From: a virus
Length of the DNA: 64,000 nucleotides
Reading direction: 5' to 3' (one strand)
IMG/VR virus record: IMGVR_UViG_3300035698_008372
Coordinates: 64,001 to 128,000 of that record
Both the position numbers and the translations under genes were made by a program. Position 1 is the first letter of the stretch, and every line of letters begins with the position of its first letter. Shown here one piece after another: positions 12,548-22,993 of the stretch. The notes beneath the pieces were generated by a model. That model saw only the letters and a list, made by a program, of their open reading frames with translations, was not told the DNA's origin and searched no databases.

Positions 12548-13645
12548 ATGGTAACTTTTAAATTATCGGATAAATTTATAGATGGGTTCAAGCGCAAGCG
12601 GGCACCCTTCGGTTTCAATGGGTTAGGGGCCCTAGTATATATGAGGACATATTCCAGAATAAAGGAAGATGGTTCAAATGAACAATGGTGGGAAACAGTA
12701 CAGCGTGTAGTTGAAGGTACATATAGCATGCAGAAAAACTGGATAGACGAACAAGGTCTTGGATGGAACCCATGGCAGGCACAGAGGTCTGCACAGGAAA
12801 TGTATGAGCGTATTTTTGAAATGAAATTTCTACCACCCGGACGGGGTCTGTGGGCAATGGGCACTGCTATCACTGAAGAAAAGGGATTGTATGCGGCATT
12901 GAATAACTGTGCATTCGTATCCACCGAAAATTTGAAAGACGATTTGGCCAAACCATTCACGTTTCTAATGGACGCTTCCATGTTGGGAGTCGGTGTTGGA
13001 TTTGATACAAAGGGGGCAGGGCAACTTATTGTCAAAGGCCCTAATGTGGATAGACCACCAGAAAAGTTTGTAATCCCAGATTCCCGTGAGGGTTGGGTTG
13101 ATGCCATGAAATTATTGATCGAGAGCTATTTTCTTGGTACTTCACCTATGGATTATGATTATGATACAATCAGGCCAGAGGGAGCACCAATAAAGGGGTT
13201 CGGCGGCACTTCAAGTGGGTACAAACCACTTAAAGCTGCTATGGATGAAATATCCAAAACACTAGATAAAAATGTTGGGGCACCTATTACAATAACCACA
13301 ATAGTTGATATTATGAATCATATTGGTAAATGTGTGGTGGCCGGAAATGTCAGACGCTGTTTACCAAATCACTATGAAGTTCAAACGGAAAATGGTTTCA
13401 AATGTATGAGTGAACTTACATCGGGAGATATGATAAATACAGCAGGAGGTTTGCGAGAGGTTAATGATGTCATAGATAGCGGAAAACAGAAAGTGTTGAA
13501 AATTAAAACGATGAACAATACTGAATATGAAGCTACTGAAAAACATACATTATTGGTATATAATCAGAAACTAGGCTTTAAGTGGAAAATGGTAAAGGAT
13601 ATTGATTCGGAGTTAGATTTTTTAGTTAAACCCAAAAATAAATAA
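12548..13645 (+). CDS. nrdJ: class II (B12) ribonucleotide reductase part 1 + N-intein 1 (13358-13642)
   Basis: YMRTYSR, FLPPGRGLW, ALNNCAF, GVGVGF, VVAGNVRR then CLPNH...ATEKH (intein blocks A/B), stop TAA. Confidence 0.92.
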   Translation: MVTFKLSDKFIDGFKRKRAPFGFNGLGALVYMRTYSRIKEDGSNEQWWETVQRVVEGTYSMQKNWIDEQGLGWNPWQAQRSAQEMYERIFEMKFLPPGRGLWAMGTAITEEKGLYAALNNCAFVSTENLKDDLAKPFTFLMDASMLGVGVGFDTKGAGQLIVKGPNVDRPPEKFVIPDSREGWVDAMKLLIESYFLGTSPMDYDYDTIRPEGAPIKGFGGTSSGYKPLKAAMDEISKTLDKNVGAPITITTIVDIMNHIGKCVVAGNVRRCLPNHYEVQTENGFKCMSELTSGDMINTAGGLREVNDVIDSGKQKVLKIKTMNNTEYEATEKHTLLVYNQKLGFKWKMVKDIDSELDFLVKPKNK

Positions 13646-13711
13646 AATATGAAGCGGTTAAGAATAATGGATACCGATTTAAATTAGATGTATATTAATA
13701 GGAGAATGATT

Positions 13712-14458
13712 ATGTATGGGATAGAAGATTTCAATTTGGAAGATTTCAATTTAATTTCGATTATGGAAATAGTCGATGAAAATAAATATGTTCAAACGAT
13801 GGACATAGAGGTTGCGGACAAGCATCATTTCTTTGTACGAAATCCTGAATACTCGGATGAATGTATTGTATCACACAATACAGCCGAAATTGTATTTGGT
13901 GATCCTGAGAATCAGGAATATTTGGACTTAAAGGATTACGACGTGAATCCATATAGGGAAGAATTTGGGTGGACATCGAACAATTCTATATTTGCCGAAT
14001 TGGGCATGGATTATACTGATGCTTGTAAACGTGTTGTGAAAAATGGTGAACCGGGATTTGCATGGCTTGAGAATATGCAGGGTTACTCACGTATGAAGAG
14101 CGGTAAAGACTACAAAGATAGACGTGTAAAAGGTGGAAATCCATGTGTTGTTGGTGATTCAATTATTACTACTGATAGAGGTAGACTTAGAATGGATGAA
14201 TTAGTTGAACGTGTAAATTCAGGTGAAACCATAAAAGTTATGTCTTTTAATGAACAAACATTAACAACTGAATTTAATGTTATTACAAAAGCGTGGATGA
14301 GTAAAAAGGATGCTACTGTATTGACATTGGAAATTGAGGAAAATGACCAAATGTTTAAATTGACATGTACCCCCGACCATAAAATATATACAACTAATCG
14401 AGGATATGTTGAGGCTAATGATTTAACTGGGGAGGATGATATAAAAATAATTACATAA
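13712..14458 (+). CDS. nrdJ: RNR part 2: C-intein 1 (to 13879) + 88-aa extein + N-intein 2 (14144-14455)
   Basis: TMDIEV..KHHFF...VSHN|TAEIVFG...TSNNS...NGEPG...GGNP|CVVGDS...CTPDHKIYT; SD AGGAG before ATG 13712. Confidence 0.92.
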   Translation: MYGIEDFNLEDFNLISIMEIVDENKYVQTMDIEVADKHHFFVRNPEYSDECIVSHNTAEIVFGDPENQEYLDLKDYDVNPYREEFGWTSNNSIFAELGMDYTDACKRVVKNGEPGFAWLENMQGYSRMKSGKDYKDRRVKGGNPCVVGDSIITTDRGRLRMDELVERVNSGETIKVMSFNEQTLTTEFNVITKAWMSKKDATVLTLEIEENDQMFKLTCTPDHKIYTTNRGYVEANDLTGEDDIKIIT

Positions 14459-14526
14459 TTCGTTTGTATATGGTATTTATTTTTGATATTTATAATAAAG
14501 AAACACTCTATATAAAGGAATGAACT

Positions 14527-15582
14527 GTGAAAACATATTGTGAAAAAAAGAACGGAAAAATTAAATTTGGAGATACTAATCATATTAGTTACGTGGGTCA
14601 CTATACAAACAATAACAATAAAACATATTATTTGCGTAGCAAGATTGAATTCGTGGTGGCTAGATGATTAGATATAAAAAATCTTAAATTTTTATATGAA
14701 TGCAAAATATATATAATAAATTCAAAAAATTATAAACCCGATTTTTTCCACACTGTAAATGATAAAATCAGAACTATTATAGAAGTAAAACCAGATAAAC
14801 AAACGGCTCTGGAATATTATTCTAAATATAACGAGTATTTTAAGAATATAGGAATTCGGTATGTAGTTTTATGAGAAAAACACATACATCAATTAATACG
14901 TAAAAATAATTTACAAGATGAGGTACTAAATTGAATAGACTATAGCATCACGAATTATAAAGTTCCCGATATGAGAGGGAAAAATAATCCTAGATATGGA
15001 ATGAAAACATCAGCAACTACTAAAAAGAAGATAGGTGATAAGACCAGAGAAAGATGTAAGGATAATGAGTATATTGATAAATTGAGTACCTCTATTTCTA
15101 AGTTCTATAATACGGACATGGGACTAAAACGAAGAAATGAAATTTCAGAGTTAAGAAAACGTGAAAACGTAGAATTCTGGAAACGGAAAAATCATGATGA
15201 CCCACTTACTACTGCTATATGTAAAATATGTGGTGATTTATTTAGATATAGAGGTATTAGTGAAAGTGGTCGTGTAACTTGTAGAAAAAATGGATGTACT
15301 ACAAAATATAATAATAGTATTGGAATTCCTCGAAAACCATTATCTAAAAAATCAAGTATTAGCTCATATAAAACAAGACTGTTAAACGGTGGTAATAAAA
15401 TGAAATTAACTGAAAACTATAAAGATTGAAACGAGAAAATTAACATGTTAAAGAAAACGTATAATATTCCAATGACGTTTGGTATGAATGAAAATACCAT
15501 TGTCAAATATTTTGGAAATATAAACACCTATATAAAGGAGATAAAAAAATATGGGAAAACTAATAAGAACGATTTTACATAA
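14527..15582 (+). mobile_element. free-standing homing endonuclease (TnsA-like PD-(D/E)XK + NUMOD3-like), 4 in-frame UGA
   Basis: From GTG 14527: YYLRSKIE...YKPDFF...IIEVKP, then GKNNPRYGMKTSATTKKKIG; TGA at 14665, 14872, 14932, 15427; ends TAA 15582. Confidence 0.8.
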
Positions 15583-16767
15583 AACTGTGGAGGATGTATT
15601 CGATTTAACCGTCGATGCTGTCCATAATTTTATAGCCAATGGTATATTGGTACATAACTGCCTTAACTACTAAGTCTCGGGGCAGTATAAATTTCTCCTG
15701 ATTGACTTGGAAGGTGAGTATACACCGACAGGGCGCAAGGGTAAAGCCAGCGTGAGAGACTGAGCGGAGAAACTTCAAAATGAAGATGCGACAGTCCACC
15801 TTATGAATCGAAACTTCTGATACGATTTGTAAACAGCGAACAAAGTTTAGAATCCTATGAATTGTGTTGTCTAGTTGAAACATTTCCAGACAATCATACG
15901 AGCAAAGAAGATTATTTGCGAACATTGAAATATGCTTATCTTTATGCAAAGACAGTGACACTTGGAAAAACTCATTGGCCAGACACAAATAGGGTTATGC
16001 TGAGAAATCGTAGAATTGGTACATCGGTATCTGGTATTGCCCAATTCATTACCAATCGAGGTCTGGGTGTACTCAGGGATTGGTTGGAAAGTGGGTACGA
16101 TGAGATTAAGAAATGGGATGAGATGTATTCAGATTGGTTATGTATTCAGCCCAGTATAAAAATTACAAGTGTGAAACCTAGTGGGACAGTATCACTACTG
16201 GCCGGATCAACTCCAGGATTACATTATCCAGAGAGTAGGTTCTACATCAGGCGTGTACGACTGGCAAAAAGTAGTAAACTGATTACACCACTTGAAAACG
16301 CTGGATACAAAATAGAACCGGCTTATGGTTCTGAAGAAAGCACAGTTGTGGTGGAAATTCCCATTGATGAGGGTGATGGAATTAGGACAAAGAAGGACTT
16401 AACGATGTGGGAACAATTGGCCCTTGCGGCGTTTATGCAACGGCATTGGGCTGACAATGCTGTTAGTGCCACGATCACGTTTGATCCGGAAACCGAATCG
16501 GATCAACTCCCATTCGCTTTGAACTATTTTCAGTATCAATTAAAAGGCATTTCATTTCTACCTAGAGTGGAAAAGGGGGCCTATAGACAAATGCCGTATG
16601 AGGAAATCACTGAAAGTGAATATGATAATATGAAAACTAATCTAAAATATTTGAGTTTAATTCACATTGAAGGGGAAATGGCAAACCCAGAAAAATATTG
16701 TGGGAATGATACGTGTGAAATTGATGCCGAGTGGGCACAAGTTGAAGATGAACAGGATGAAAAATAA
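15551..16767 (+). CDS. nrdJ: RNR part 3: C-intein 2 (15551-15658) + C-terminal extein, interrupted by a group I intron
   Basis: MGKLIRT...VFDLTVDAVHNFIANGILVHN|CL^EQSLESYELCCLVE...RNRRIG...TSVKPSGTVS; C-terminal CGNDTC. Confidence 0.9.
15664..15836 (+). ncRNA. compact group I intron (173 nt, no ORF)
   Basis: 5' exon ends in U, intron ends in G. P1 ACTGCCT/GGGCAGT with U.G; P3 TTTCTCC/GGAGAAA; P7 GACTG/CAGTC; P8 CTTCA/TGAAG. Removal restores C-L-E-Q frame. Confidence 0.9.
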
Positions 16768-17900: not shown

Positions 17901-17973
17901 GCGATTGAGGTGTTCAAGGGGAGCACGTCGGTATTCCATATCGAAGGAGTGGGTTCGAATCCTGCCGATCGCT
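17901..17973 (+). tRNA. atypical tRNA-Gly(UCC)
   Basis: GCGATTG/CGATCGC, U73; TCGGT-ATTCCAT-ATCGA; GGTTCGAATCC; A8; no CCA. Confidence 0.85.
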
Positions 17974-17984
17974 CTATTAAAAAT

Positions 17985-18057
17985 GCGATTGAAGTGTAAC
18001 AGGTAAGCACGCCGACATACCATGTCGGAAGAGTGGGTTCGAGTCCTACTGATCGCT
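17985..18057 (+). tRNA. atypical tRNA-Gly(ACC)
   Basis: GCGATTG/TGATCGC, U73; CCGAC-ATACCAT-GTCGG; GGTTCGAGTCC; A8; no CCA. Confidence 0.85.
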
Positions 18058-18084
18058 CTATTAATGCAAGGAAAAAAATGTTAT

Positions 18085-19419: not shown

Positions 19420-21180
19420 ATTTATAAGTCAATTTATTTCGAAGCGGAAAAACAGAAGATTCATTTGTGGGATGATGACCGCGGCTATTTCACAATACCA
19501 TATAGACGTTATGGGTATATAAAAGATAGGGGCGGCACATATACTTCATTATATGGGGACAGGCTTAAGAAAATCCACAAGTGGGGCAAAGATTCCACTG
19601 GATTATTTGAGAGTGATGTACACCCTGAAACAAGAACATTAATTGATCTGTACACCAATGACGATGAACCATCAAAAGGTAACAAAACGATTATTATTGA
19701 TATTGAAGTCGAGGTCACAGATGGATTCCCAACTGCTACTTTGGCCGAGAATAAGGTTACGGCTATATCAATTTACGATTTTACGGATAAGAAATATTAT
19801 GGTTTGGTATTGGAAAATGGCAAGGGTATTATCAAGCCATCCACAACTCCAGAGCTTGACATTGAAGTGTTTGATATGGAAGTTGATTTGTTGAATAGAT
19901 TCATGCAGATATACCTACGCATAAAACCAACTATTATTACTGGTTGGAATGTGGATAGATTTGATGTAACATACCTATACAATAGAATGGCCGATCAGCT
20001 GGATGAAGATGTAGCCAATTGCTTGTCTCCAATCGGTGTGGTACATTGGAGTGATTTCAGGGGTAGCTACAGAATCGCTGGGGTTGCAACAATGGATTAC
20101 TTACAGTTGTATAAGAAATTTACATTTACGCAACAGGCTTCATACAGATTGGATGCGATTGCTGATTTCGAATTGGGTGAACGCAAAATTGAATATGATG
20201 GTACACTAAACGAATTATATGAAAATGACATTGAAAAATTTGTCCAATACAACATCCATGATGTTCGACTAATTGAGATGTTGGACAAGAAATTGAATTT
20301 TATAGAAATCGCTCGTGGTATTTGTCACTTGGGGCATGTTCCGTATGAAGATATTTACTATGACAGTAGATACCTAGAGGCTGCTATTCTTGTTTATCTG
20401 AAAAAATTGAACATCATCGCTCCGAATAAGCCCGAGCGTGAGGGTTGGAAGGATGAAATTGGCTTTGAGGGTGCTCACGTTCAAAAGCCCAAGAAGGGTC
20501 GTCATAATTGGGTATATGATTTGGATTTAACATCAATGTATCCAAGCATCATTATGTCGTTGAACATTTCTCCAGAGACAAAAATAGGTAAAATAGATGG
20601 GTGGGATTCCAATAAATTTGTGAAAAAAACCCCAAAAACCTATACTGTCAAATATGGTACAACCGCACTCCAATCCATGGATCAGGATGAACTACAGGTA
20701 TTTTTTGATACCAATCATGTGTCGGTATCGGCCAATGGGATATTGTACAAAACTGATAGGGATGGCCTAATCGCGTCACTCCTGAAAAAGTGGTTCGACG
20801 AACGTGTTGAATTCAGAAAATTGGCTAAGAAGTTTGCCGACGCGGGTGATAACGAGAAATATGATTATTTCAATAGACGACAACATATCCAGAAGATTCT
20901 CCTTAACTCACTTTTTGGGGCACTCGGTTTGCAGGGTTGGAGATTCCATGACGTAGACAACGCCCTTGCAGTTACATCGACGGGGGTAGAATTAATTCGA
21001 TTTTCCAAAACCATTGCAAACCATTATTACAATACTGAGCTTGGTAAAGAAATTGAACTTGAAATGGAAGATGGGTCTATCAGAAAATTATATGAAAATT
21101 GGCCAATCCATGTAAAAAGGGGTGGTAAAAAAGTTCAAATTTTAGCCAAAAATCTCAAAATAAATGATGATATTCTCTAA
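19420..21180 (+). CDS. family B DNA polymerase, N-terminal part (probable ATT start)
   Basis: ExoI DIEV, TGWNVDRFD, YNIHDV, motif A DLTSMYPS, motif B KILLNSLFG; ends in an intein-like tail. Confidence 0.93.
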   Translation: MYKSIYFEAEKQKIHLWDDDRGYFTIPYRRYGYIKDRGGTYTSLYGDRLKKIHKWGKDSTGLFESDVHPETRTLIDLYTNDDEPSKGNKTIIIDIEVEVTDGFPTATLAENKVTAISIYDFTDKKYYGLVLENGKGIIKPSTTPELDIEVFDMEVDLLNRFMQIYLRIKPTIITGWNVDRFDVTYLYNRMADQLDEDVANCLSPIGVVHWSDFRGSYRIAGVATMDYLQLYKKFTFTQQASYRLDAIADFELGERKIEYDGTLNELYENDIEKFVQYNIHDVRLIEMLDKKLNFIEIARGICHLGHVPYEDIYYDSRYLEAAILVYLKKLNIIAPNKPEREGWKDEIGFEGAHVQKPKKGRHNWVYDLDLTSMYPSIIMSLNISPETKIGKIDGWDSNKFVKKTPKTYTVKYGTTALQSMDQDELQVFFDTNHVSVSANGILYKTDRDGLIASLLKKWFDERVEFRKLAKKFADAGDNEKYDYFNRRQHIQKILLNSLFGALGLQGWRFHDVDNALAVTSTGVELIRFSKTIANHYYNTELGKEIELEMEDGSIRKLYENWPIHVKRGGKKVQILAKNLKINDDIL

Positions 21181-21242
21181 GTTTATACTATTTATATACA
21201 GACACAATGTATCAATGTATAAAATATAAATTGGAGAGTAAG

Positions 21243-22082
21243 ATGAAAAAGGGGTCAGCGAGAACATTACAATATTGATTGGATAAAGGGTATAAAGGGG
21301 AAGAAGCAGAAAAAATGCGTATGAGCAGAATTCCAGGTACTATAGAATATTTTACTATATTTAAGGGGCTCCCATTGAATGAGGCCGAAATTGCGAAAGA
21401 AAATTATAACAAAAGGTCCGTTCCGACATTGGAAAATATGATACGCAAGTATGGGGAAACTGAAGGTGAAATTAGGTGGGGTGCATATCGTGAAAAACAG
21501 GCAAAATCCAATACATTTGAATATAAGCGTGATAAGTATGGTTGGACATTGGAACAATTCGATGCTTATAACAAATCAAGGGGATTGTCTGGTAAAGACA
21601 ATGGCAATTATGGGTCGAGCTATTATGAAGCTTGGGTTAAAAAGTATGGAAAAATAAAGGCCGATGAAATGAATAATGCTTTAGGTGAATTGAAAGCCAA
21701 AGGGGGGAAATCTCAAAAAGGTGTACCCAAATCATTTGTGGCTAGAAAAAATATGAGTATAGCTGCAAAGAAAAGGATAATGGATCAGGGTACTTACATT
21801 TCATATAATCCAAATTCAATTCCGATAATTGAAAAATATGGAAAAGAAAATGGATATAAATTTCAACATGCTGAAAATGGCGGCGAATATTTGGTTAGGG
21901 AAGTTTACTATTGGGTAGATGGGTATGATCATGAAAATAATGTGGTGGTTGAATATGATGAAAAATACCATGAAATGCAAACGGAAAAAGATAAAATTAG
22001 GCAACAACATATAATGGATGTGTTGGGGTGCAAATTTATAAGAATTAAAGAATCTGGAGAAATTAAGATTTATGAAAATTAA
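21243..22082 (+). mobile_element. free-standing Vsr/DUF559-like homing endonuclease splitting polB (UGA at 21276)
   Basis: QY*LDKGY..EEA, KYG...G repeats, FQHAENGGEY...YWVDGYD.ENNVVVEYDEKYH...D..RQ..I...LGCKFIRI. Confidence 0.82.
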
Positions 22083-22993
22083 AAATATAAGGGAATCAAA
22101 AGGTGTCGATGTGGATCATGTTATCTACATCGACACGTAGTGCGGATTCACTATTTATTTCGTCAACCGCGATGGTGAGCAAACGATATGGAAACAAGAA
22201 ATTCAGTGATGTCATGCTGTCACAGTACATCTTGACAATAGCTGGTGACACCCAAAAATTCATAAATAACTCGTATGACTATTTTGCCAAGAAATTCTGT
22301 AATCTTCCCGGTGCACACCGGTTTGAGATTAAACAGGAATTGATTGCAAAGTCAGCTGTATTTGTCAATGCTAAGAAAAATTATGGGTTGCGTGTTATCA
22401 ATGACAATGGTGTGAAAGTGGATAAAAATGTGTACAAAGGCTTGGCCGTAGTTCGCAGTGATTTCCCACAATCATACAGAAAATTGTTAGGTGAGGTGCT
22501 AGGTGATGTTCTAGCGGATGTTCCAAAAGATAAGATCGACGATCGTATTATTGAATACAAAAACAACATGAGATACTTGAATGTCGAAGATATCGCCAAA
22601 CCAACTGGGGTTAAGAATATCAAAAAATATTTGGTTCCACCTGGAGCGGGTGGGGGATTTTCTACTTGGAAGTCTCGTTGTCCTATCCATGTCAAATCAT
22701 CTATCATATACAATGATTTGATTAAGCATTTTGACAAACAAAAGAAGTACGCATTGATAGGGGCCGGCGACAAGGTCAAATGGGTGTACTTAAAGAAAAA
22801 TAATTTAGGATTAGAAAGTGTGGCTTATACAGGTCACGAAGACCCAAAGGAAATTATGGATTTCATATATAATTTTGTGGATAGGGATAAGATGTACGAT
22901 AGTATATTTTTGAACAAAATCACATCAATATATTCTGCCATGGACTGGTCGTTGCCCATAGATAAAAAGTTCTCGATGGACAGATTTTTTTAA
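22072..22993 (+). CDS. family B DNA polymerase, C-terminal part; 7-nt coding gap (22138-22144) inside YIDT^DS
   Basis: ATG 22072 MKIKNIRESKGVDVDHVIYIDT-TAG; DSLF resumes at 22145 in the +1 frame; later AKKNY, KGLAVVRSD, PIHVK, GDKVKWVYL, C-terminal SMDRFF. Confidence 0.9.

Follow-up and report, generated by a model that had tools for sequence, protein, structure and literature searches.

The DNA analysed here (the window) is a stretch of 64,000 nucleotides (nt), part of a 140-kb IMG/VR virus record that is about 71% complete. Its source is a T4-like phage of salt lakes, and the same stretch is present in 24 salt-lake metagenome runs. The family-B DNA polymerase of this phage (PolB, gene polB), which is of the T4-like kind, is coded in two parts on the same strand with an endonuclease open reading frame (ORF) between them. 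We think it probable that a mobile cassette fractured the gene, that the two halves carry non-splicing tails which are remnants of a split intein, and that a short translational hop crosses a small gap in the second half. A wider proposal is offered tentatively, as plausible and still short of probable: that such mobile cassettes carry a portable, non-splicing docking pair which repairs PolB and PolA and which in PolB is coupled with a hairpin-driven programmed hop of 5 to 7 nt within the catalytic DTDS motif.

All features of the locus lie on the + strand. The N-half proper (19420 to 21048) codes for the exonuclease, motif A and motif B as far as ...NHYYNTELGK, matches the Pfam families DNA_pol_B_exo1 and DNA_pol_B, and is homologous to the unsplit PolB of the locus L003. 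It continues into a C-terminal tail of 43 residues (EIELEMEDGS...NDDIL; 21049 to 21180, with the coding span 21049-21177 and the TAA stop at 21178-21180), in which YENW stands where the block-B region of a split N-intein has TxxH. A short spacer (21181 to 21242) separates the tail from a Vsr-like free-standing homing endonuclease gene (21243 to 22082), the 3' end of which overlaps the ATG of the next element. This element is a leader, MKIKNIRESKG (22072 to 22104), resembling the first strand of a partner C-intein; ATG 22072 opens MKIKNIRESKGVDVDHVIYIDT. The cassette also carries the PolB motif-C strand, VDVDHVIYIDT (22105 to 22137), which aligns to DKDYVIYIDT of the unsplit L003, is near-identical in nucleotides in the cassette-bearing loci L136 and L131, and ends in a putative take-off codon, ACG 22135-22137. 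An RNA hairpin (22103 to 22136) with a 14-bp stem (22103-22116 paired with 22123-22136) and a 6-nt loop ends at this codon. There follow a 7-nt coding gap, TAGTGCG (22138 to 22144), within the DTDS codons, comprising the stop codon TAG 22138-22140 and a putative landing codon, GCG 22142-22144, and the PolB C-part (22145 to 22993), which runs from DSLFIS... through the thumb (282 residues plus stop) in the +1 frame relative to the leader.

The origin of the tail was traced with a profile of three tails, searched against 1.84 billion (1.84e9) cluster representatives at E<=1e-3. Seventeen proteins matched, in every case at their C-terminus, and they fall into three groups: PolB N-halves with a tail, PolA N-parts with a tail (P0009, P0013 and P0015), and three complete N-inteins, P0004 (E 2.5e-7), P0011 and P0016 (range 2.5e-7 to 3.4e-4), in which the 43 matching residues are the end of the intein. 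These three proteins start with Cys (CFARGTEI..., CFPGSTQV... and CQSLNNVI...) and keep TxxH (as TEDH, TPNH and TENH); their Pfam Intein_splicing matches are sub-threshold but correctly placed, and P0004 aligns to the solved Ssp DnaE intein. A comparison of profile against profile by hhalign, with eight tail-only sequences on one side and five true N-inteins on the other (two of them from the window's own ribonucleotide reductase), gave a probability of 98.3% and E 2.4e-14, in a test that is not fully independent because three of the five true inteins had been found with the tail profile. The 43 tail columns map to intein columns 92-134 of 141, and YENW falls on TxxH, the T and H of which are kept in all five true inteins and lost in all 12 tail-only forms.

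An AlphaFold2 model of the 43 residues, made from an eight-row alignment, has four strands and a mean predicted local distance difference test score (pLDDT) of 88.7. The top six Foldseek matches to this model are inteins, with query template-modelling (TM) scores of 0.70-0.77 and root mean square deviations (rmsd) of 1.3-1.6 Å, and with E-values that are non-significant for so short a model. In an exhaustive VIA-align search of 48,161 chains, Hint domains make up the top 14 rows (Z 6.2-3.3, rmsd 1.2-1.9 Å over 39-43 of the 43 residues), the best of them having Z 6.2 and an rmsd of 1.2 Å over 43/43. The matches sit just before the split or endonuclease-insertion point of the inteins concerned (for example Npu DnaE 55-95, gp41-1 46-85 and NrdJ-1 63-105), and the model corresponds to the block-B sub-structure of the Hint fold, about one third of a Hint domain. 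Three lines, a sequence profile, a comparison of profile against profile and a predicted fold, thus show an intein origin at the level of sequence and model, and they support the tail as a true remnant of the last ~43 residues of a split N-intein. An earlier reading made from the letters alone (the sequence-only reading) had proposed that the N-half past NHYYNTELGK resembles the last N-intein strands with YENW in place of TxxH, and that an intein had degraded here. The profile hits and hhalign bear out the first proposal, the three lines together back the second, and the predicted structure of the tail (pLDDT 88.7, Z up to 6.2) is Hint-like, as that reading would have it.

The remnant has lost the chemistry of an intein. 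The residue-1 nucleophile and block A are missing, with Glu directly after ELGK, and about 60 N-terminal residues are absent by comparison with P0004, P0011, P0016 and the inteins of the window's ribonucleotide reductase. On the other side, the leaders are PolB sequence past ~11 residues, without block F, block G or the terminal Asn. The absence of Cys1, block F and the terminal HN, already remarked in the sequence-only reading, is therefore part of a wider loss: splicing is gone because every catalytic element is absent (residue 1, block A, TxxH, blocks F and G, the terminal Asn and the +1 nucleophile). As far as sequence can tell, a splicing-competent intein is excluded on every defining feature tested. 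Because everything needed for splicing is gone, the polymerase must work as two polypeptides.

The leader is likely to be the remnant of the first ~11 residues, that is the first strand, of the partner C-intein. MKIK.IR is invariant in seven leaders, counting the true C-intein of L140, and every PolB leader starts in this way. L140 is a classic fractured PolA locus, with the true N-intein P0004, then a free-standing nuclease gene, and then a C-part that opens MKIKKIRKIEDQESFCLNVEGH...VVPN/C, where the C-intein starts MKIKKIRK...; at the ribonucleotide reductase locus of P0016 (L159) the C-intein reads MKIKKIARDV...VSHN/T. MKIK.I is thus common to the C-intein partners of two true inteins, in agreement with the earlier suggestion that the leader matches a first C-intein strand, and homology is likely because the match stands in the partner position of a homologous tail. 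Tail and leader would then correspond to the stretches on either side of the point where an intein is naturally split, and we infer that they act as a docking clasp. A complex prediction for the tail and leader of the gap-less locus L154, folded alone, gave ipSAE values of 0.28 and 0.05 (mark 0.32).

The tail segment is an insertion and not an ordinary feature of PolB, because L003 and ~100 other relatives read through without it. The closest relative, L003/L084 (79-85% amino acid identity), has an uninterrupted ...ELGTDKDYVIYIDTDS... at this position and no tail (the longer stretch reads ...ANHYYNTELGTDKDYVIYIDTDSLFISS...), and the ~100 other relatives are likewise unsplit and tail-less. A tblastn search of both flanks against the fetched loci found the normal 31-40-nt spacing in nearly every close relative. 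Together with the C-terminal position of all 17 library matches, these unsplit relatives set aside the possibility, raised with the sequence-only reading, that the segment occurs inside unsplit PolB as an ordinary insertion.

That reading had also suggested a search for the same module at other split phage genes, and the pair of tail and leader does recur, at split PolB (LR756508, L129-132, L142, L143-151 and L154) and at PolA (L155, L138 and L156). The module is found in many metagenomes, always at the fracture point, and it is accompanied by a Vsr-like endonuclease, by a GIY-YIG endonuclease, or by none. In LR756508, a 484-kb uncultured phage, it occupies the same PolB site; the halves are 4 kb apart, separated by other genes, and D/TDS holds a full intein. 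L129-132 have no endonuclease and only 18 nt between the PolB halves, L142 has a GIY-YIG nuclease and the gap, L143-151 (at least six metagenomes) have a small Vsr-like nuclease, and L154 has a GIY-YIG nuclease and no gap. In the PolA locus L155 the tail is directly followed by the leader MKVKRLKK..., with stop and start overlapping.

Some of these loci are more complex than the window. The PolB of LR756508 (L126 2947-6000 and L127 481-2346) is interrupted three times: a full intein lies in motif B (KILIN/C...), and a second full intein, at YTD/S...HN/TDS, occupies the site of the 5-7-nt gap of other lineages. In L156 (1944-4463) PolA is apparently in three pieces, and a tail of the family described here closes both the first (666 residues) and the middle one (P0013, 121 residues). 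In L081 (2885-6948) PolB is also broken at this position before motif C, but its short ends differ (...KGQLKLDI, followed by a stop, and MKHLQDTPWYICDPELTNYAAYCDTDS), ~1.4 kb of cargo separates the halves (a cupin-like ORF and others), and no intein-like tail is present.

The cassette itself appears to have moved recently. Outside the cassette and its flanks, polB of L136 is 100% identical in nucleotides to that of the unsplit L003; the flanks diverge, and identity there falls to 70% in the ~150 nt upstream and to 78-95% in the ~190 nt downstream. In their pattern these tracts (window equivalents 20899-21048 and 22145-22330) look like co-conversion tracts, a signature of recent endonuclease-driven homing with co-conversion. 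The donor to L136 was a third lineage, because in its upstream tract L136 resembles the window no more than it resembles L003. Between the window and L136 the spacer is well conserved in its 5' part, to ~21198, and less so in the remainder: identity is 93% in the bin 21139-21198, which also includes the end of the tail, and falls to 68% over 21199-21258. A search for near-relatives by DNA among reference phage genomes found none, the sole match being 50 nt of the endonuclease gene to Aes phages. A group I intron was considered and rejected, as Rfam at E<=1 gave nothing over 20500-22700.

The endonuclease gene opens at ATG 21243 behind GGAG and has an in-frame TGA at codon 12 (21276-21278), which is TGG in L136; the L136 gene is itself interrupted in frame, by a different stop that replaces a Trp elsewhere. 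Both copies seem to be at an early stage of decay into pseudogenes. An alternative for the window gene is a restart at TTG 21279. The product belongs to PHROG 22677 (E 1.8e-14, a match that covers the N-terminal repeats only), the family of the Aes144 PolB endonuclease, and a BLASTP comparison with the Vsr-like gene between the split-intein halves of Aes144 PolB gave 48% identity over 67 residues (E 7e-16). A DUF559 match at residues 211-258 is weak and below the cut-off (E 1e-3), and no solved relative was found by sequence search. The earlier claim that an endonuclease sits inside polB thus stands in that an endonuclease-like ORF lies between the halves, though its gene is decaying.

The start of the N-half is probably ATT 19420, judging from its alignment with the ATG start of L136 (MYQGIFFEAEK...); it is preceded by AGGGGA, and the window has no ATG at the homologous position. 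TTG 19465, the first listed start codon, is an alternative that would give a shorter protein.

The second half presents a further problem. The leader ORF stops at TAG 22138-22140, straight after YIDT, and the remaining PolB (DSLFISSTAMVSKRYG...) is in the +1 frame: where L003 has GAC ACC GAT TCA, the window has GAC ACG TAGTGCG GAT TCA, so that seven additional bases separate the codons of the catalytic DTDS. An assembly error in this record is not the cause, because independent Logan contigs of two other runs (X11 record 5 and X13 record 9) agree with 0 differences; in runs X22 and X24 the gap lay outside the sequence covered. Of the layout given by the sequence-only reading, the tail after NHYYNTELGK and the ATG opening MKIKNIRESK hold, whereas its DHVIYIDT belongs to a leader frame that ends at the TAG. 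Since TAGTGCG interrupts DTDS, the statement that the C-half begins MKIK... is true only if the ribosome changes register.

Gaps of this kind occur in five lineages and share a pattern. Written as take-off codon, intervening bases and the codon before GAT TC(A/T), the junctions are ACG TAGT GCG (window), ACG TAGT ACG (L136), ACT TA ACT (L131), ACT TG ACT (L143) and ACT TGAA ATT (L142). A stop codon directly follows the Thr codon in 5/5, and TAG, TAA and TGA are all used. The codon before GAT is the identical Thr codon in three of the five (ACG..ACG once and ACT..ACT twice); in the other two (ACG..GCG and ACT..ATT) it differs by a transition that is G.U-compatible with an NGU anticodon. A hop of the Thr-tRNA from the first codon to the second would restore exactly Y(I/V)DTDS in all five lineages. 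The window type of gap was found in 24 runs and the L143 type in at least six metagenomes; an exact-pattern scan of viral contigs, the window's own record excluded, for the window junction with gaps of 0-12 nt found none. Reading of the TAG as an amino acid was rejected, as the read-through frame ends 25 codons on without any likeness to PolB. The window has no tRNA-Thr gene; a pair of neighbouring genes at 17901-18058, a little upstream of the polymerase region, codes for tRNA-Gly (anticodons TCC and ACC).

A strong hairpin stands directly 5' of the take-off codon in all five gap lineages and is weak or absent in six gap-less controls. In the window its free energy (dG) is -22.2 kcal/mol (14 bp, z -4.7, 0/200 shuffles as stable), with -18.7 in L136, -19.2 in L131, -23.3 in L142 and -12.7 kcal/mol in L143. 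The L142 hairpin, of 17 bp, includes the take-off codon and the UG of the stop (z -7.9). The controls (L003, L004, LR756508, L154, L160 and Aes144) have values of -1.7 to -9.7 kcal/mol, about shuffle stability. The hairpin was not called as a terminator and has no U-tract. With ACG in the P site, its 3' arm would be inside the ribosome and its 5' arm outside, so that refolding would pull the mRNA forward, the same role that has been proposed for the 5' stem-loop of T4 gene 60 (bioRxiv 10.1101/2022.08.31.505936).

These observations can be joined into one account. A mobile homing-endonuclease cassette would have fractured polB just upstream of motif C and brought with it two coding leftovers of the split intein of a "fractured gene", the tail of the N-half (~43 residues) and the leader of the C-half (~11 residues). 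Paired with each other, the two leftovers may form a small beta-sheet module, which would dock the halves and hold the motif-C hairpin in position. The analogy with T4 mobA/gene 60 suggests a short translational hop at the gap, in which the peptidyl-tRNA-Thr would leave ACG at the UAG and re-pair 7 nt downstream on GCG, helped by the 14-bp hairpin refolding behind the ribosome. The product would carry the YIDTDS junction (...VIYIDTDSLFISS..., junction peptide GVDVDHVIYIDTDSLFISSTAMVSK). In the T4 element the gap gives protection from the element's own nuclease, and by the same analogy the gap in polB might do so too.

Besides the partial dependence of the hhalign test, several points weigh against this account. 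The likeness of the leader to a C-intein comprises 6-7 residues that are common in AT-rich genomes; BLASTP of the leader against the true C-intein gave no alignment, the match being too short to score. "Clasp" may be the wrong word for the role of the pair, and we keep it as a hypothesis, because the tails of Aeh1 NrdA are reported to be needed for activity and dispensable for formation of the heterodimer (PMC3045599). At the gap, the window's landing codon is only 2/3 Watson-Crick, and a 22-residue nascent chain at a stop codon risks termination in the putative hop. No double-sided covariation was found in the hairpin across the gap lineages, and the case for it rests for this reason on its stability and its presence or absence with the gap. 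The codons of VDVD and IYID are moreover complementary by nature: an unsplit PolB with DVDYVIYIDT folds weakly (-8.7 kcal/mol), and this complementarity pre-dates the gap hairpin, because a DVD before the motif-C strand exists in the intact L160 (1797-1849, minus strand, an unsplit PolB with ...TDVDYVIYIDTDS...). Protection by the gap against a Vsr-like nuclease is not general either, because a GIY-YIG nuclease accompanies the gap in L142 and occurs without it in L154; the gap goes with no single type of nuclease.

The gap might instead be crossed by a programmed frameshift (+1 for the 7-nt gaps, +2 or -1 for the 5-nt gaps), or the C-part might be started separately, giving a three-piece enzyme of N-half, 22-residue peptide and C-part. 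Stop codons in the A site are well known to stimulate +1 frameshifting, as in prfB. The +1 frame of the window has its own ATG 22109 after AAAGG, and L143 has a TTG just before ACT GAT. Frameshifting, however, would leave one or two extra residues between the catalytic Asp residues (DTSADS, DTTDS or DTEIDS), and sister lineages would need different shifts because their gaps are 5 or 7 nt long. As to a separate start, ATG 22109 lies inside the hairpin stem, and initiation cannot supply the catalytic Asp in the L131 lineage, because its downstream frame has no ATG, GTG or TTG before that residue. The matched or G.U-compatible landing codons of all five lineages fit re-pairing, and we regard frameshifting or a separate start as unlikely.

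A more pessimistic view is that the split gene is dead: the 7-nt gap would kill the C-half, and the cassette would be a selfish one in phages that need helpers or that have another polymerase in the unsequenced part of the genome. The record is ~71% complete, the endonuclease genes are decaying, and, since the cassette is all that distinguishes L136 from the intact L003, mixed infection with intact relatives is plausible. Yet the PolB frames on either side of the gap remain open and conserved in five diverged lineages, the window's C-part is 85% identical in amino acids to L084/L003 with no further stops, no second PolB was found in the 140 kb of this ~71% complete record, and the gap persists across its 24 runs and at least six metagenomes, in many samples and years. 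Unlike random decay, the gap varies in length (5 or 7 nt) while the stop, the landing codon and the hairpin are kept. A dead gene is, on this evidence, decidedly improbable.

The tails might also be insertion junk, generic C-terminal and N-terminal extensions (CTE/NTE) of the MobE/NrdA and MobA/topoisomerase kind, with no intein ancestry and an intein-like pattern by chance. Non-intein tails are a known solution in MobE and in MobA elements (PMC3045599; bioRxiv 10.1101/2022.08.31.505936). Plain sequence tools agree with this view in that neither Pfam nor a search of the tail profile against PDB sequences gave an intein, and BLASTP of the tail against the Aes144 N-intein and against the N-intein of the window's own ribonucleotide reductase was non-significant; among sequence tools, the relation is visible only in the 1.84e9-protein profile search and in hhalign. 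In that search, however, the profile matched proteins that have Cys1 and TxxH upstream of the matched region, and the hhalign E-value, a fold that matches Hint domains almost exclusively, and a leader motif common to true C-inteins are hard to reconcile with chance. We consider this explanation largely refuted already and very improbable.

Non-canonical inteins exist. We nevertheless give almost no chance to the idea that the pair is a working, very reduced split intein that trans-splices PolB by such chemistry. The related phages Aes123/144 do splice PolB in this way, by a split intein (annotated N- and C-intein; PDB 9hth) which has no cysteine and between whose halves a related Vsr-like gene lies. 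In the window, though, the N piece lacks ~60 residues, among them block A and any residue-1 nucleophile, and has YENW for TxxH; the C piece is missing the terminal Asn as well as blocks F and G, and no Cys, Ser or Thr stands as a +1 nucleophile after an Asn. T and H are lost in 12/12 tail-only relatives.

Canonical split inteins are present elsewhere in the window, where ribonucleotide reductase (12548-16767) is coded in three pieces joined by two of them (Cys1, TxxH-type block B and ...SHN/T), with a further ORF between pieces 2 and 3.

Known ways to live with a homing endonuclease in an essential gene are RNA splicing, protein splicing and tails that reassemble the product. This locus links the last two, as an intein without its chemistry whose split-site association segments are kept as a transferable adapter in two polymerase families. 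It offers a natural test of whether a split intein can associate through its central segments alone, and such pairs may be of use as small natural docking tags in protein engineering. There is also a warning for annotation, since gene callers will call this essential polymerase broken.

Split T4-like polymerases as such are not new. Petrov, Karam and co-workers (cited in PMC2677866) reportedly described a split gp43 in Aeromonas phages 25 and 44RR, in which the T4-like PolB is said to work as a pair of subunits, whose cistrons in some cases have a homing endonuclease gene between them. That split differs from the one described here in lying upstream of motif B, as seen at the gp43A/gp43B1 junction of Aes144, and no intein-derived tails have been reported for it. 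In a limited literature search, which is not proof of novelty, we found neither natural intein remnants that serve as non-splicing tails nor a bypass in polB.

The closest architecture is that of the "fractured genes", in which split inteins flank a free-standing Vsr-like endonuclease (Dassa et al. 2009, PMC2677866). As in those, two same-strand halves of a replication gene (19420-21180 and from 22072) enclose a free-standing endonuclease gene (21243-22082) whose 3' end overlaps the start of the downstream half, and the tail and leader share ancestry with portions of those split inteins. The likeness extends to the PolB split intein of Aes123/Aes144 (JN377899-902; PDB 9hth), as the endonuclease is in the same PHROG as that of Aes144. 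The difference is that only the split-point segments survive here, with no splicing residue, which rules out ligation of the halves. Insertion also took place ~11 codons upstream of the Aes144 site (DTD/S), and the 7-nt gap is extra.

Aeh1 NrdA, which is split by mobE, resembles our locus in its non-splicing solution: sequences of the endonuclease insertion are reported to become C- and N-terminal tails, which are essential for activity and without which the enzyme is not reassembled from its parts (Crona et al. 2011, PMC3045599). No intein ancestry is reported for these tails, whereas here the ancestry can be traced and the pair is reused in PolB and PolA.

The other relevant system is the T4 mobA/gene 39-gene 60 cassette with its 50-nt translational bypass (Bonocora et al. 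2011, here through its account in bioRxiv 10.1101/2022.08.31.505936). Manning and Atkins describe the MobA element as combining CTE/NTE tails with bypass, and consider the bypass cassette still unique to topoisomerase (bioRxiv 10.1101/2022.08.31.505936). The PolB cassette is similar in many respects: an endonuclease that is often decayed or lost and is of exchangeable type (Vsr-like or GIY-YIG), a split gene with conserved CTE/NTE tails, a gap in the coding sequence, placed a few dozen codons downstream of the start of the second ORF, take-off and landing codons that match, with a stop after take-off, an upstream stem-loop, and evidence of recent homing. It differs in its host gene, polB, and in the position of the gap inside the catalytic DTDS; the gap is 5-7 nt long, against ~50, with no room for a take-off stem-loop or an internal Shine-Dalgarno sequence. 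There is no sequence homology, the endonuclease is Vsr-like and not MobA (HNH), and the bypass here is putative. The PolB cassette is thus at most an analogue, and not a member, of the MobA/gene 60 type. If the 5-7-nt gaps are indeed bypassed, decoding of the gene 60 kind would no longer be isolated, and they would provide a minimal system for take-off and landing. Phage translational bypass would then have a second, independent family in nature, and its hop would be the shortest of the programmed kind.

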